Positions 1-6,301 of a DNA stretch of 53,116 nucleotides are shown here, piece after piece; the first letter of the stretch is position 1, and each line of letters opens with the position of its first letter. The stretch is from positions 1 to 53,116 of the IMG/VR virus record IMGVR_UViG_3300038321_000021. One strand, 5' to 3'. The stretch is from a virus. Made by a program: the position numbers and the translations under genes. The notes beneath the pieces were generated by a model. That model ran no database searches and was not told where the DNA came from. It was given only the letters and a program-made list of their open reading frames with translations.

Positions 1-99
1 ATAATAACACAAAAGTTACGATTACCCTCTCGATTGTACTTTGTTTCCTTTCCCGCAAAGTTGCGGAATATAATACGAGCGTTCTCAATGATAATGTTA
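1..99. repeat. Terminal direct repeat, copy 1 (identical to 53018..53116); circular closure overlap
   Basis: Read by eye: nt 1-99 (ataataacacaaaagttacg...caatgataatgtta) are repeated exactly at the window end. The repeat is internal to a minus-strand CDS. Confidence 0.9.
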
Positions 100-119
100 T
101 CTACATTTTTATAAGCCAT
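1..119 (-). CDS. 5' end (first 39 codons plus 2 nt) of the gp2.5-like SSB gene that wraps the circular junction; continues at 53017
   Basis: ATG at 119..117 sits behind the [55 protein letters not shown] then joins in frame to 53017 ([14 protein letters not shown]...). Total 483 nt = 160 aa plus stop. Confidence 0.7.
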
Positions 120-140
120 TTTGTTTTTCTCCTTTCTAAT

Positions 141-1415
141 TTAACGAACATCAAATGGTGTAGAATCGTTCCTAGGTTTATCGGGGTCTCCCCAAGGCGG
201 TGTCTTCGAAATATAAGGTTCGTCCGAAACAAACCATTCAAAATCGCCATACTCGGATATAGACTTAACAGCTTCATCGACCATCTTGTCATAATAGGAT
301 CGATCGATGTTGTCTTCTTTTCCGAGTTCGCTGACCATTTCGGATTCCAGCCACCTGTAGCCTTTCGACCCTGTAGCAGCGTAATACTTACCGTCTTTCT
401 CACGCATAAGTAATCCGCCACCACAACCAGATTTAATGGGGCAGAATTGACCAACTTTTCCAATGAATCGATAGTTGTGACCTTTATCGATGAGTTCTCT
501 CAACTCCTCAACTCGTTCACACTTACGCTTCATTTCCTCGTCATTAGGAAGATCTTGATTATTGATATCTTTCCAAAGTTTTTGGTACTCTTTTTCATAG
601 TCGGATACGTCCGGCAAATCTTCGTTCATATCCAAATATAGAGCCGAGGTTACAGATTTTGTCTCACACATGTCGTCAAATATAATTTCTTCCTTACTAA
701 AAAGTTTTTTGAATACGTATGGTACGGCAAATTGAGTACCCGTTGCTGACCAGGACCCATCTGTATACTTGGCAATATAAACCGCATCATTTACAAGACA
801 CATTCTGTCGTATGTAGCCTCGTGCTCAAATGTATAACCGTATTCCTTTCCAAAATCCATAACGAACTGTATAATCTCGGGAGTCGCATCGGGAATTTTT
901 ATAGAGTCGGTCTTAATATGAGCGACTGTGAATCCTCGACTATGTATCTCGTCTTGAAGTGTTCGCATGAACAACGCCCCTCGAAGTGCTACGATGTTGT
1001 TTTTGTTACGAATATCACGAAAAGGATTATCGAAATTCGCCGAAGTCAAACCATACACACTATTGGCAGCTATTTTCAAAGCGTTTGATAAAGCTGTAGT
1101 ATCCATGCCGTCATGTAAATATTTTGCTAATCTGCCTCCAAGCATTGTCTTAGCCGTCTCAATATCACCATGTTTAATAGCTATTCGGGCATCAAGAAGT
1201 TCTTTAAATCGTCCAGTATATTCTCCGAACACATTCATGTTGATAGCAGAGTTTGGGTGCATGGATTGAACGTCAAGTAACGCAACGTTTCCATACATTC
1301 CGGGTAAAGCATATACATATCCGCCTTTTCCAAGGTCTGTTCCTCTATACATATTATGAAATTGTTTGTCTGTGTCGTCGTATACAAATTCATAGCCAGG
1401 AAACGAATTAATCAT
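141..1415 (-). CDS. Family B DNA polymerase, polymerase (palm/fingers/thumb) half
   Basis: Motif A LLDVQSMHPNS (DxxSLYPS type), motif B KIAANSVYGLTSA (KxxxNSxYG), motif C HIKTDSI (DTDS type). Own SD GGAGGTG upstream of the ATG. Confidence 0.85.
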   Translation of the reverse strand: MINSFPGYEFVYDDTDKQFHNMYRGTDLGKGGYVYALPGMYGNVALLDVQSMHPNSAINMNVFGEYTGRFKELLDARIAIKHGDIETAKTMLGGRLAKYLHDGMDTTALSNALKIAANSVYGLTSANFDNPFRDIRNKNNIVALRGALFMRTLQDEIHSRGFTVAHIKTDSIKIPDATPEIIQFVMDFGKEYGYTFEHEATYDRMCLVNDAVYIAKYTDGSWSATGTQFAVPYVFKKLFSKEEIIFDDMCETKSVTSALYLDMNEDLPDVSDYEKEYQKLWKDINNQDLPNDEEMKRKCERVEELRELIDKGHNYRFIGKVGQFCPIKSGCGGGLLMREKDGKYYAATGSKGYRWLESEMVSELGKEDNIDRSYYDKMVDEAVKSISEYGDFEWFVSDEPYISKTPPWGDPDKPRNDSTPFDVR

Positions 1416-1962
1416 AAGACACCTCCAAAAGTATTCGCCCTTTACAAGTTTTGTTTTTTCCAGACTTTAGAAGTGAAATTGCCGATTTACTCACTCCTAA
1501 TGCCCTTGCTGCTTGCGTATGCGAATCAAAACGTTCAACTTTTCCCGAACTATTTTTAAGAGTAATCCGTCGATTACTTCCTTCTCCGTTTTCATACATA
1601 TCTCGAACATTATCTGCTTGCGTTCCCCATGCCAAATTTTCGACATGATTATTTTCTGGCTCATCGTCAAGGTGTCGAACTACAGGTTGATTGTCTGTAT
1701 TCGGAACGAATGACTCCGCTACGAGGCGATGTATATAGACGCGTTCTCTGCTTCCTGTATCCTTAAGCGATATTTCTAAGTGACCGCTTTTTATGTTTGG
1801 TGTAGGTGTCATAAATTTACGAGAGATGTCCGACCAAACACGACCTCTGTTGCTTATCTTATAAGAAGGGTGTCTAGATATAAACGCCCATTCTTCGTCC
1901 ATGTGTTCTTCTGAAATATAAATATCGTCGCCATATACAAACCTTGCTGCTATGTGTTCCAT
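1408..1962 (-). CDS. HNH homing endonuclease (NUMOD4-like N-terminus, HNH_3-type core, C-terminal HTH), inserted between the two PolB halves
   Basis: WAFISRHPSYKISNRGRVWS; VRHLDDEPENNHVENLAWGTQADN; AARALGVSKSAISLLKSG. Own SD AAGGAGA. Starts 15 nt after the upstream stop and overlaps the downstream ATG by 8 nt. Confidence 0.85.
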   Translation of the reverse strand: MEHIAARFVYGDDIYISEEHMDEEWAFISRHPSYKISNRGRVWSDISRKFMTPTPNIKSGHLEISLKDTGSRERVYIHRLVAESFVPNTDNQPVVRHLDDEPENNHVENLAWGTQADNVRDMYENGEGSNRRITLKNSSGKVERFDSHTQAARALGVSKSAISLLKSGKNKTCKGRILLEVSYD

Positions 1963-1977
1963 TTTAATTCTCCTTTC

Positions 1978-4692
1978 TTAAGACTGTTCGCCAGTCGCTA
2001 AGTCTGTATAAATAAGTCTTGGTTTTCTATCATTACCAAATATAATTCGAGTGGTCAAAGTATTTGTGGTATCATTAACCGTCATACTGGCCACATCAGC
2101 TAGAATTTGTCTCGCTAAGAAGTCGGAATTTCGAGCGTTGAATGTCGCCTCAGTTGCAATAACGTCATTGTCACAATACTCTGCAACTTTCGTCCACATT
2201 TCTTCTGGTACCGGTTTGTCCCACGGTAAACCAAGTTCCTGATGATGAATACCTAATTCTATTTGGAACTTTTTTAGGGACTGCTTCTTACTGGAGAAAT
2301 CGTAAACGTCCGTATAAGACACATTATAGGCTTCCCCGAAGAAACAATTCCGACTACCGTTAATGATCTTCTGAGATAGATTGTAAAGTTGCTCATTTGT
2401 ATAACCCATAAGTCTGGCATACAAAATATGATTATCATATCTACGGCAGTTGAACCCTACCAATCTGAATTTCATCAGATCTTCAATTTCAGAAGGGGAG
2501 GGGTTAATCATTCGTACAACAGGTTTTCCTTCACCTTCAATCTTCCAGTTCACTAAGAATAGGTTAGGGAAGACCTCAACATCATAGAAAACCAGTTTAG
2601 CATCATCATTTTTTCCTCCAGCGGAGGGATCCGCAGACTTAAACTGCATTTTATTTACCAACTTGATACAATAGTCGGCTTGGTGAGTGCTATTTGCAGC
2701 AAACGCCAATACTGCATTACGCATATCAGTGACGTCATAATTCAAGTCACTAGCATATGTATCCTCTAGTATTTTATAAATAAAGTCGATACTGGGCTTA
2801 GTACCTGGATGTATCTCTTTGTTAAGATTTCGTTTGATCAGTGTTCTAAGCCCTTTCTCGCTTTTTATGGCTTCAAAATTTACCATTTTATCTTCTCCTT
2901 TCAGCGGTAAACCAGAGCTAATGGTCGAGATAGGTAAGTTGTTGCATTTTGACAATTTTCGTCTTAATGAACTTTTACCAGTGAACACCTTAACTTCCAC
3001 ATAGTCATCATAAACTCGGCTCAGTTTTGAGACATCTCCAGTGTAAATATAATGCAGATGTATTCCTGCACCACTCTTACTAAGCTCTGCATATGTTGGC
3101 GGCCATTTACTAGCTTCTTCAACGTTCCTTTCAAAAGATTTATTACCGTCTCCATCTGGAATATCGAAGTCAATAACAATATGATTTTCCGGAACTCTAA
3201 CGTAATGGAGTTTTGAAGTATTTAACTCTGATAATTTTGACGTAACTTCATCCCATTTTTCAAAAGGTGTTTCGTTTTCCGTAGCGTACTGAGCAATACA
3301 ATCAGCACATTCTTTGTCAAATATAGATTTGTTTTTTACAAACTTTATATGCGTCATCTTTGTTTCTCCCTCTTCATCACCATCCGTCCTTTCCTCAAAT
3401 TTTTCCGTCCGAAATCCGCTGTAATAACTTCGAACCCTAGATCCATCATCAAAATTAAATCGATCTTTGTAATCCCGGAAATAATTCCTAAGCTCCTCCT
3501 TAAAGATTCTTTGTGAATATGGAAATGCTACCTTTGCCTCATCGCAGTAAGTCTTATACATTTCCCAAGCGGCTTTAAGTGTTGTTCCATCTTCCTTCTT
3601 GAACACATGGTATGAGTCAATAACGAAGTTGTAGAAATCGTTAGATGCACCAAGCATCGCCACTGGAATATAATCATCGTACTTACTGGGGTTCTTCAAA
3701 TATACTTCTTGGCAGTGATAAGCAATTGCCCCCAGTTCAAAGCCGACCTGTTTGACAATTGTTTTATATTCCTTCGAACTCAACTTATCGCCGGAAGGAG
3801 ATACGTCAATTAGTCTTCGGATAAGACCTGATTTTGCATCTGTGATTTTTACCGGCTTATTTGTGCCAAGGAACAGAAAACATTTAAAGCGATTTGCATA
3901 GGTCGATTTGAATTTTTCGTTTACCGTCATAAGCTCGTGGGAAACAAGACTATTCAACCTCGTATTATCTTCAATTTTGGAGAGGTCGCCGTCGTGTTGA
4001 ATCGCAACAAGCGGATTGGTTTTAAACGCTTCCAGCGCAAAAGAATTACTGGAAGAACCAAGAGCCCTAGCATCAAACACTGAATAATAACCTTCAAACA
4101 ACTGCTGGATGATGTTTAGTATTGTAGATTTACCGGTTCCCGCTGCGCCATACAGAACCATGAATTTCTGCAATTTCTTAGAGTCTCCGGATACAATCGA
4201 CCCGATCGCCCACTCAATCTTATGTCGTTCTTCCTCTATATATAGAGTGGACATCAGCTTGTCATAGGCAGACAAATCGCCAGCTTCAAGCGGATAACTC
4301 AGCTTTTTACTGGCGTAATCTTTTTTATCGGTTTTGTTGTTGGAAAATATAAGTTTCTCATCCAACATATGAAAGTGATCCCTCATCTGCTTCTGACAGT
4401 ATTTATGCCAAGAGTCAATCATTCCAGACTCGGCGTCCCACATATGCAGAACTTTTATATTAGAGTCAAATTTTTGGCGGTTTTCTTCTGCGTATCTATC
4501 TAATTCACGATCGATCAGCTGTAAAGCGGAATGTTCGTCTGTAGACCACAGACCATATTCCTCAATCCAGATAGCGTAGAAATCACCACCTCGAATCATG
4601 AGATCTGAGCTTTTTTTGATGATGAACTTTGGATAGATTTCTATTACGCCACGTTTTGTACTGCGTGTTGAAATCATAAGAAAGTCAACCAT
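1978..4692 (-). CDS. Fusion protein: P4/D5-type SF3 helicase + AEP (prim-pol) primase + PolB 3'-5' exonuclease domain
   Basis: Helicase (aa ~170-300): Walker A YGAAGTGKST (aa ~181-190), VAIQHDGD, FLGTNKP. AEP motifs: IVIDFDI and SGAGIHLHYIY (aa ~505-550). Exonuclease: ExoI FYDVEVFPN, ExoII GFNCRRYDNHIL, ExoIII YCDNDVIAT (aa ~700-850). Confidence 0.8.
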   Translation of the reverse strand: MVDFLMISTRSTKRGVIEIYPKFIIKKSSDLMIRGGDFYAIWIEEYGLWSTDEHSALQLIDRELDRYAEENRQKFDSNIKVLHMWDAESGMIDSWHKYCQKQMRDHFHMLDEKLIFSNNKTDKKDYASKKLSYPLEAGDLSAYDKLMSTLYIEEERHKIEWAIGSIVSGDSKKLQKFMVLYGAAGTGKSTILNIIQQLFEGYYSVFDARALGSSSNSFALEAFKTNPLVAIQHDGDLSKIEDNTRLNSLVSHELMTVNEKFKSTYANRFKCFLFLGTNKPVKITDAKSGLIRRLIDVSPSGDKLSSKEYKTIVKQVGFELGAIAYHCQEVYLKNPSKYDDYIPVAMLGASNDFYNFVIDSYHVFKKEDGTTLKAAWEMYKTYCDEAKVAFPYSQRIFKEELRNYFRDYKDRFNFDDGSRVRSYYSGFRTEKFEERTDGDEEGETKMTHIKFVKNKSIFDKECADCIAQYATENETPFEKWDEVTSKLSELNTSKLHYVRVPENHIVIDFDIPDGDGNKSFERNVEEASKWPPTYAELSKSGAGIHLHYIYTGDVSKLSRVYDDYVEVKVFTGKSSLRRKLSKCNNLPISTISSGLPLKGEDKMVNFEAIKSEKGLRTLIKRNLNKEIHPGTKPSIDFIYKILEDTYASDLNYDVTDMRNAVLAFAANSTHQADYCIKLVNKMQFKSADPSAGGKNDDAKLVFYDVEVFPNLFLVNWKIEGEGKPVVRMINPSPSEIEDLMKFRLVGFNCRRYDNHILYARLMGYTNEQLYNLSQKIINGSRNCFFGEAYNVSYTDVYDFSSKKQSLKKFQIELGIHHQELGLPWDKPVPEEMWTKVAEYCDNDVIATEATFNARNSDFLARQILADVASMTVNDTTNTLTTRIIFGNDRKPRLIYTDLATGEQS

Positions 4693-4698
4693 CGCCTT

Positions 4699-4932
4699 TT
4701 ATTCTCCTTTCATGCGTTTAAGCTCCTCGATCTCTTTACTTAGTTCTTCGATTTTTTTGTCTTGTCCATAATTATGGGTCTTCACCATAAGCGCATAGGT
4801 AGTAATAGTAAATGCGAAAGCGGCTAGCGTTCGGTTAAACCTTGCTTGATTTCGAAGTTGTTTTCTGATGTTTTTAATGGCGTCTGAAGAAGACTGTAAA
4901 CTTCCGAAAATATAATTAATCATTTCAACCAT
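4699..4932 (-). CDS. Hypothetical small protein (one hydrophobic segment, C-terminal coiled-coil-like)
   Basis: 77-aa ORF with SD AAAGGAGG 8 nt upstream. Confidence 0.6.
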   Translation of the reverse strand: MVEMINYIFGSLQSSSDAIKNIRKQLRNQARFNRTLAAFAFTITTYALMVKTHNYGQDKKIEELSKEIEELKRMKGE

Positions 4933-5146
4933 TAACTTTTCCTCCTTTCGTTTTGTGTTTCATGAAACTGTCCACGGTTTCAAACTTCCAATCTCTATGG
5001 TTATTGAAAGTAAATATAAATTCCGCATCGTTCTGCTGTCTTACGCGGATACTGTTTTTACCATTCGGAAACCATACTGCGACGCGGTTCCCAGCAAATA
5101 GCTCAAAATATAATTCGAACCATTTGAAAACTTCATTGTGAGTCAT
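4925..5146 (-). CDS. Hypothetical protein
   Basis: 73-aa ORF with SD AGGAGGGG upstream. No recognisable motif. Confidence 0.6.
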   Translation of the reverse strand: MTHNEVFKWFELYFELFAGNRVAVWFPNGKNSIRVRQQNDAEFIFTFNNHRDWKFETVDSFMKHKTKGGKVNG

Positions 5147-5156
5147 TTCACCCCTC

Positions 5157-5711
5157 CTAAGATGCTAGGATGTCGTCCAAATACCAACACATTTGGTACC
5201 AAATTTCAGCGGTTCGTAAATCATGTTTACAATTCTTAACAGTAAACAAACCGCCCTCGCCGTTTCGTTCATATTCTCGGTTAAGGAACCTCGTAATGAC
5301 GCTTTCCAAATACCATTTATCAAATATCGTGTCATGCATGGAACCCAAACCAAGATTTACAATCATGTTCCAGAACCATTGCCCTGTGCGATTGCCGATA
5401 TCGGGGTCATCCATAATATGTTCCTCGCAACGAATAGCAAGGGCTGTTAACATTTCTAAAACACTACAAGGACGGTCATCCAAATATGTTGCTATCATAG
5501 GGCTATTGTACTGACGCTCATATCCAAATCGATATCGGAGGTCTATCCCATCTTCGGCTCTGTTACCATCCATTTCAATAATATAGGTAAACTCCATATC
5601 ATGTAGGTGAGTCAAAAGCTTCCGATAGGATAGCCTTTTCGGATATTTTTCATTGCATACGAGCTGGTACATCCATTCGAAGTATTCTTTGTTCAGCTCG
5701 TTTTTTGTCAT
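5157..5711 (-). CDS. Hypothetical conserved phage protein
   Basis: 184-aa ORF with globular-looking composition. Start overlaps the upstream stop (TAATG). Confidence 0.65.
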   Translation of the reverse strand: MTKNELNKEYFEWMYQLVCNEKYPKRLSYRKLLTHLHDMEFTYIIEMDGNRAEDGIDLRYRFGYERQYNSPMIATYLDDRPCSVLEMLTALAIRCEEHIMDDPDIGNRTGQWFWNMIVNLGLGSMHDTIFDKWYLESVITRFLNREYERNGEGGLFTVKNCKHDLRTAEIWYQMCWYLDDILAS

Positions 5712-6301
5712 TAATCACTCACCGGCTTTCTTCTGATGATAACGCTCGAATATTTTCTTTGATCAAGAAGGATTTCATAGTCGCATTTCAGTCTGTCGTT
5801 TCTGACAAATACTGAATCATCTTCATACTCTCCAAAACTATTCAAAGAATCGAATCCGACAACGTCTTCGACATCATCCACGATTACATCGTTATCGTCG
5901 GCCAGAATTTGATCAGCGTAATAAGTTAGACTAATTGTTTCATAGTCATCTAAATCGCCAAACTCTTCCGGAGCGATAACATAAGGTTTATCTACGCTCA
6001 TAGGCTCCTCTTTCACCTCCTCGGGTTTTTCATCAACCAAGTCGGAATAGTTAGTATAACCATGTTCACTTAAACGGGCTGCGTATTCTATAACGCTCGG
6101 CTTTTCCTTTGCGTTGTCCGCCTTTATTCGGGCTTCTGTATTCTCAGTAAATTCGGCTTCTCTCTTTGAGAATACTTCTTTTACTGAATCAATTTCATCT
6201 TGAGCTATCTGCTCATATTTTTTCTCAACATACCGCCAGGTAACTACTGAACCGACGGCTACGCCGAGAACAAACATCATAAAATTTATTGTTTTATTCA
6301 T
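5711..6301 (-). CDS. Membrane-anchored acidic protein (N-terminal TM helix)
   Basis: N-terminal FMMFVLGVAVGSVVTW segment followed by a strongly acidic C-terminal half. SD GAGGAG. Confidence 0.65.
   Translation of the reverse strand: MNKTINFMMFVLGVAVGSVVTWRYVEKKYEQIAQDEIDSVKEVFSKREAEFTENTEARIKADNAKEKPSVIEYAARLSEHGYTNYSDLVDEKPEEVKEEPMSVDKPYVIAPEEFGDLDDYETISLTYYADQILADDNDVIVDDVEDVVGFDSLNSFGEYEDDSVFVRNDRLKCDYEILLDQRKYSSVIIRRKPVSD

Follow-up and report, generated by a model that had tools for sequence, protein, structure and literature searches.

The virus record IMGVR_UViG_3300038321_000021 from IMG/VR is a complete genome of 53,116 bp with direct terminal repeats, and "the window" stands here for that whole stretch of DNA. 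On its minus strand, a DNA replicase is encoded by two open reading frames (ORFs) with a third gene between them. The upstream ORF (the N-half) encodes a protein of 904 amino acids (aa) with the helicase, primase and exonuclease regions, the downstream ORF (the C-half) encodes one of 424 aa with the polymerase core, and the place where the two are parted, the seam, is occupied by a gene for an HNH protein (coordinates in Table 1). This split replicase is the only one in the genome.

In a profile search, residues 2-899 of the 904-aa ORF match positions 1-922 of PHROG 4210 (annotated as 'DNA polymerase', 1304 positions; E=0), and the 424-aa ORF matches positions 923-1293 (E=4e-163). Because these matches are colinear, the two ORFs represent two parts of a single, known protein family. 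The summed halves come to 1328 aa, compared with 1279-1337 aa in unsplit relatives. Such relatives are common: tblastn finds at least 253 phage records, each covering at least 80% of the query, among phages of Arthrobacter, Gordonia, Streptomyces, Lactococcus, Faecalibacterium and others. They carry labels such as 'DNA primase/polymerase', 'helicase/polymerase' and 'DNA polymerase', and the gene was read as a single ORF in FP_oengus (1337 aa), Gordonia phage Avazak (1279 aa) and Lactococcus phage 1706 (1317 aa). An earlier reading of this DNA from the sequence alone (the sequence-only reading) had proposed an ancestral gene of ~1330 aa, with helicase, primase and family B polymerase (PolB) joined to what is now 141..1415, and the unsplit form of ~1280-1340 aa in at least 253 phage records bears this out. 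At the nucleotide level, a megablast of window positions 1-5000 against phage records gave no match.

The best studied member of the family is GP55. Kazlauskas et al. (2016; PMC4889955) predicted that gp55 of Lactococcus phage 1706 is a fusion of a superfamily 3 (SF3) helicase, an archaeo-eukaryotic primase (AEP) and PolB. Zhang et al. (2025, Nucleic Acids Research; PMC12205980) have since found that GP55 has helicase, primase, exonuclease and polymerase activity, and named it a 'four-in-one replicase'. They describe a dimeric protein with a new helical domain, aHD, that is needed for priming. The window replicase has the same order of domains (SF3 helicase, PriS-like AEP, aHD, PolB exonuclease, PolB polymerase), and in a global alignment it is 42% identical to GP55 in the N-half and 40% identical in the C-half. 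All the residues reported as essential in GP55 (PMC12205980) are kept, namely K188 (K189 in GP55), D510 (D509), Y652 (Y655), F664 (F667), D704/E706 (D712/E714) and, in the 424-aa ORF, D48 (D949). Judged by its sequence, the window replicase thus belongs to the GP55 'four-in-one replicase' family (PHROG 4210). Where GP55 is one chain of 1317 aa, however, the window chain breaks off after the exonuclease subdomain, the polymerase subdomain is encoded separately, and the HNH gene lies between the two. The property that gave the GP55 type its name, all four activities in one polypeptide, is therefore absent from the window: there are two ORFs, and the homologue is a two-chain variant. Because of the published prediction and biochemistry, the 42% and 40% identity and the kept essential residues, the helicase-primase-exonuclease architecture of the sequence-only reading is right and was already known. 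Its remark that this architecture is unusual is a fair one, but the same architecture had been predicted in PMC4889955 and characterised in PMC12205980.

Other relatives differ from the window mainly in being unsplit. The nearest named one is the 'helicase/polymerase' of FP_oengus (AUV56521.1, 1337 aa; PHROG 4210), which is 66% identical over the full N-half but is encoded by an unsplit gene. The actinophage 'DNA primase/polymerase' genes (e.g. Gordonia phage Avazak gp63) are likewise unsplit.

Domains of the two halves

All eight motifs quoted in the sequence-only reading are found where it had placed them in the 904-aa protein, which is far beyond chance. For the helicase, Pfam DUF5906 scores 48.2 bits (cut-off 27.6), and an AlphaFold2 (AF2) model of residues 1-445 (pLDDT 84.4, pTM 0.80) matches the SaPI5 primase-helicase (7ola) with Z 21.8 (369 residues aligned, rmsd 4.4; model residues 6-414 on SaPI5 residues 323-748). 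Residues 18-429 of the same model align with residues 323-779 of vaccinia D5 323-785 (8apl) with Z 18.7, and further matches (Foldseek, VIA) are D5, E5, NrS-1 CTR and ASFV PrimPol. The model therefore supports a D5/P4-type SF3 helicase, as had been proposed, with a collar at its N-terminus. The sequence-only reading had left the first ~170 aa as an unassigned domain. There is a domain there, but it can be assigned: because of the alignment ranges with SaPI5 and D5, it would be the collar in front of the AAA+ core, and in the model it forms part of the D5-type helicase module. This assignment is read off the alignment ranges in the 445-residue model rather than from an isolated N-terminal fold.

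The primase was modelled together with aHD (AF2, residues 440-700, from an alignment of 34 sequences; pLDDT 83.7). The best Foldseek matches of this model are the primase-polymerase of NrS-1 (N300) and the prim-pol domain of pRN1 ORF904, with probability 1.0 and E between 1e-5 and 7e-4, and the next hits are unrelated, with E > 0.03. TM scores for these AEP matches are low (0.3-0.39) because the model includes aHD as well. Four helices close the model, as in the published description of aHD. Residues D508, D510 and H545 are invariant in the alignment, and PHROG 3022 'DNA primase' matches residues 497-569 (E=8e-5), the sole primase match from a curated profile. An AEP (PrimPol-like) domain C-terminal to the helicase, where the sequence-only reading had put it, is thus supported by the model. 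The primase-helicases D5, P4, SaPI5, NrS-1 and ASFV C962R share the AEP and D5-type SF3 helicase folds with the window protein, but in these the AEP comes before the helicase and there is no polymerase, whereas in the window it comes after the helicase and is joined to PolB.

PHROG 1252 covers both halves of the PolB region colinearly, with E=7e-30 for the exonuclease part. The exonuclease residues D704, E706, D753, Y839 and D843 are invariant in the 34 sequences, including those of the DEDD set. Together with the GP55 mutants, the profile match and these invariant catalytic residues are the reason for the exonuclease assignment, and the three PolB exonuclease motifs given in the sequence-only reading hold. 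In a profile search against PDB, the polymerase half matches E. coli Pol II (E=1e-4), while Pfam DNA_pol_B stays below its threshold (13.8, cut-off 23).

A charged, probably helical insertion at window positions 450-640 (residues ~260-320 of the 424-aa ORF) forms a second variable patch; over concatenated positions 1141-1230 it is 93-98% identical in three relatives (L006, L007 and L095, locus numbers as in Table 1) and 18-65% identical in the others compared. In two loci (L058:2887-7173 and L133:2875-7161) the replicase ORF has 1428 aa, with an apparent internal duplication at the junction of aHD and exonuclease, and the duplicated segment is homologous to FP_oengus residues ~642-696. In another (L061:2203-2361), there is, ~800 nt upstream of the full replicase gene, a second copy of the AEP core that spans 53 residues and has 72% identity to FP_oengus residues 513-565. 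Finally, the otherwise unsplit replicase at L021:3169-7161 is interrupted by six in-frame stops in a run of ~40 codons close to residue 850, which is probably a local frameshift or assembly error.

The seam in the window and in its relatives

The break falls in the linker between the exonuclease and polymerase subdomains, a linker whose length varies among unsplit relatives. After the stop codon of the N-half comes AAAGGAG-N7-ATG for the HNH gene and then GGAGG-N7-ATG for the polymerase half. Only 15 nt precede the HNH ORF, which fills 555 of the ~562 nt between the N-half stop and the next ATG, and the start of the polymerase half overlaps the HNH stop codon (the overlap between the end of the HNH ORF and the next gene is 8 nt). 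The HNH protein matches Pfam HNH_3 (38.4, cut-off 24.8) and PHROG 59 (E=2e-44), with a NUMOD-like score of 26.2 against a cut-off of 27, and is predicted to be a free-standing I-HmuI-like HNH homing endonuclease. A scan of window positions 1-5300 for promoters and terminators did no better than chance, and the three cistrons have no terminator between them. The N-half runs on for 5-7 residues past the last position homologous to unsplit relatives and the C-half begins 1-3 residues ahead of the next one, so neither has an extension of intein size. A 'fractured gene' of the split-intein kind was considered as well, and was rejected as the broken ends carry no intein halves.

Two scans of IMG/VR gave 146 loci, which together with the window make 147 sequences. 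The gene is full length and uninterrupted in 116 of the 147, is cut by a contig end in 8, and shows stops or a duplication in a few. In 14 other contigs it is split at exactly the seam of the window (15 with the window). The split forms on all 14 contigs have an N-half tail of the form ...YTDLATG(E/K)Qxx-stop and a C-half head of the form M-x-(I/V)-I-N-(A/S)-FPGY, and each of the 15 split loci has a conserved Shine-Dalgarno sequence and ATG before the downstream half. Just 3 of the 80 loci from the scan that started from the window protein were split; the second scan was seeded with the split form, and is therefore enriched for split forms. Public data are rich in polymerase halves of 413 aa, one of which recurs with exactly the same sequence on 302 contigs that reach 62 kb.

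What lies in the seam differs from locus to locus (Table 1). It can be an HNH gene, as in two other contigs, or a gene of a different kind, or a mere spacer; HNH genes are absent from the nearest unsplit relatives. As the cargo varies or is nil, the two-gene state is considered stable and independent of the endonuclease. Every split seam that lacks an HNH gene contains a promoter-like motif (AATACGCGAAAA...TATTATGAG, in the form A(A/G)TACGCGAAAA-NN-ACA-N7-8-T(A/T)TTATGAG), which recurs elsewhere in the same loci. From its sequence and positions it looks like a phage-specific promoter. It is absent from the window.

Since the genome is complete, has no second replicase, and shares its seam with 14 other contigs, the split is, on sequence evidence, real and tolerated.

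Table 1. Positions of replicase domains, motifs and seam contents in the window (first 19 rows) and in related loci (L numbers)
Feature	Residues	Position	Strand	Basis or remark
904-aa N-half gene		1978..4692	(-)	helicase, primase, aHD and PolB exonuclease; ORF open for 904 codons
Collar-like N-terminal domain	1-135	4288..4692	(-)	AF2 model alignment ranges; boundary approximate
SF3 AAA+ core and C-terminal helicase domain	136-435	3388..4287	(-)	Pfam DUF5906, structure matches
Walker A YGAAGTGKST	181-190	4123-4152	(-)	
Walker B VAIQHDGD	229-236	3985-4008	(-)	
Helicase motif C FLGTNKP	274-280	3853-3873	(-)	
PriS-like AEP primase domain	456-600	2893..3327	(-)	AF2 model and Foldseek
AEP DxD motif IVIDFDI	505-511	3160-3180	(-)	
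AEP SGxGxH motif SGAGIHLHYIY	540-550	3043-3075	(-)	
aHD four-helix domain	601-690	2623..2892	(-)	helices at model residues 173-242
PolB 3'-5' exonuclease subdomain	691-904	1981..2622	(-)	PHROG 1252, E=7e-30
ExoI FYDVEVFPN	702-710	2563-2589	(-)	
ExoII GFNCRRYDNHIL	746-757	2422-2457	(-)	
ExoIII YCDNDVIAT	839-847	2152-2178	(-)	
184-aa HNH gene		1408..1962	(-)	between the replicase halves, in the seam
424-aa C-half gene		141..1415	(-)	PolB polymerase subdomain; GGAGG precedes ATG; PHROG 4210 positions 923-1293
Polymerase motif A		1254-1280	(-)	424-aa ORF
Polymerase motif B		1050-1076	(-)	424-aa ORF
Polymerase motif C		897-920	(-)	424-aa ORF
Seam cargo, HNH gene		L004, L005		38% identical to window HNH
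Seam cargo, Nlig-Ia-domain protein, 120-155 aa		L084-L089, L123 (L084:5525-5986, L123:505-867)		stand-alone DNA-ligase Ia (Nlig-Ia, NAD+-binding) domain
Seam cargo, MazG		L049 (L049:2612-2938)		MazG-like pyrophosphatase
Seam cargo, small ORFs of unassigned kind		relatives		
No seam cargo		L090, L091		spacer only, 140-277 nt
Promoter-like motif in seam		L084:5475, L088:4596, L090:5865, L091:5883, L092:1230, L094:5506, L123:392, L049:2938		
Promoter-like motif at other intergenic sites		L084:12845, L091:8946, L123:3804		

Directly upstream of the replicase in the window (4699-6301) are four small genes that match PHROGs 16856, 16983, 4678 and 4695, with function unassigned. Directly upstream of the FP_oengus replicase, too, are ORFs (178 and 183 aa) that resemble these in size.

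Origin of the seam

Compared with two unsplit relatives (L006 and L012), the window shows 91-100% identity over residues 1-870 and once more past residue 1110, but identity falls to ~50% at residues 871-960 and is 55-78% from there to about residue 1080. Over this stretch the sequences nearest to the window are L095 and other split forms. On a tree of the backbone, i.e. the gene minus its seam columns, the split state takes three changes, and an approximately unbiased (AU) test on 32 rows rejects a single split clade (log-likelihood difference, delta lnL, 292; p=8e-6). On a tree of the seam region it needs one change, and here it is the backbone grouping that the AU test rejects, with delta lnL 108 and p=1e-7; the window pairs with L095 (SH-aLRT 96) within a set of 'YTDL-type' lineages (SH-aLRT 99). 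As the two trees conflict and identity drops around the break, the seam and ~200 flanking codons seem to have moved between backbones, so that on the sequence data the seam was transferred horizontally between phages. In the HNH-bearing lineage, homing with co-conversion is plausibly the obvious mechanism, with plain recombination as the alternative.

The best explanation, to which we give a probability of about 85%, is that a replicase of the GP55 family has been cut into two cistrons whose products reassemble, with a seam that came in by recombination. By homology to GP55, the helicase would unwind DNA, the AEP with aHD would make short RNA primers, and PolB would extend and proofread them. 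The chain is cut in the variable linker between exonuclease and polymerase, giving the 904-aa and 424-aa cistrons, each with its own Shine-Dalgarno sequence and ATG. The two products would then come together non-covalently through the normal interface of exonuclease with palm and thumb to make a working PolB. The seam, with ~200 flanking codons, would have been obtained from another lineage, plausibly by endonuclease-driven homing.

There is a precedent for such a cut. According to the review in PMC2988022 (after Petrov et al. 2010), the T4-related Aeromonas phages 25 and 44RR carry gene 43 as two parts, 43A and 43B, and the products co-purify and are active. As described there, a phage PolB is again encoded as two cistrons, with a seam that is taken up by a homing endonuclease gene in one of the phages and by just an untranslated spacer in another. 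That polymerase, however, is of an unrelated PolB lineage and comes with no helicase or primase. The place of the break differs too, being within the polymerase domain in gene 43 and not at the boundary of exonuclease and polymerase.

Several observations weigh against the explanation given above. Pfam finds no AEP family at E<=0.1 and no exonuclease family in the 904-aa protein. As Pfam and PDB profiles miss the AEP, its assignment is based on predicted structure and GP55 homology. A PDB profile search with the whole family matches E. coli Pol II alone, in the polymerase half only, and one with the exonuclease by itself gives just a match to Pol gamma ExoIII that is not significant (E=0.17). 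When residues 689-1317 are deleted from GP55, minimal helicase activity remains (PMC12205980), so that separating the polymerase could be costly to the phage, and none of the published constructs separates exonuclease from polymerase. As for the history, a single origin of the seam has SH-aLRT values of 23-85, which is weak support, and the imported patch could be explained by ordinary mosaic recombination with no endonuclease involved.

This last point touches on the role of the HNH gene. We see roughly even chances that it is not the cause of the split at all, having invaded a pre-existing seam or travelled with it, while the first break was made by another insertion, e.g. a promoter/terminator mini-unit. 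A split clade of nine members has the same tail and head residues and no HNH gene, its seams being filled with Nlig-Ia, MazG, small ORFs or a spacer; the promoter-like motif is present in each of these seams, and a single origin would fit the tree of the seam region. A like ambiguity between phages 25 and 44RR is discussed in the relevant part of PMC2988022. However, the single origin is weakly supported and the tree is unrooted, so an ancestral seam could have borne the HNH gene, which was then lost or replaced, and the seam of the window has no such motif.

A different possibility is that the intervening 560 nt are a self-splicing group I intron with an I-HmuI-like HNH ORF, as in SPO1's DNA polymerase gene, giving a mature chain of ~1320 aa. 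Introns of phage polymerase genes are where I-HmuI-like HNH enzymes are classically encoded, and the insertion sits in-line in a polymerase gene. An intron is nevertheless very improbable: an Rfam search of window positions 1-5000 gave no intron and nothing at E<=1, and the HNH ORF, with its 15 nt in front and 8-nt overlap behind, leaves too little of the seam non-coding to accommodate a ribozyme core. In addition, all 15 split loci have a conserved Shine-Dalgarno sequence and ATG on the downstream half, and the seams of relatives are just 140 nt long or hold unrelated genes. The intron was therefore rejected. The idea that the split arose as an artefact of assembly or sequencing, or marks a pseudogene in a defective phage, brought up by the metagenomic nature of the record and by the frameshifted patch with six stops in L021, is hardly credible and was rejected too, given an equal seam in 14 other contigs from at least two backbone lineages, full-length halves with all catalytic residues, clean ribosome-binding and ATG signals, a genome complete with terminal repeats, and the 413-aa halves that abound in public data.

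The split replicase as a natural variant

The fusion itself adds nothing to the prediction of 2016 and the biochemistry of 2025, and all that is new is that it has a variant which is naturally split and horizontally mobile. The GP55 paper (PMC12205980) uses none of the words 'split', 'homing' and 'intron', and among the papers searched none on a split variant was found and none citing the GP55 work turned up. We lean towards a natural two-subunit four-in-one replicase, in which the exonuclease is kept on the helicase-primase and the polymerase core is separate, and where the seam would be a site for mobile cassettes that has spread with ~200 flanking codons between gut-phage lineages.

The split form is a natural experiment which marks where the chain can be cut in a phage that is apparently viable. 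Because the helicase of GP55 depended on the PolB part, the split also bears on how the domains of GP55 communicate. As an example of a seam with a homing endonuclease and flanks that were probably co-converted, it is a clean one, seen across many metagenomic phages. For annotation it is a warning, as the abundant 'hypothetical proteins' of 413-424 aa in gut metagenomes are the polymerase halves of this replicase.

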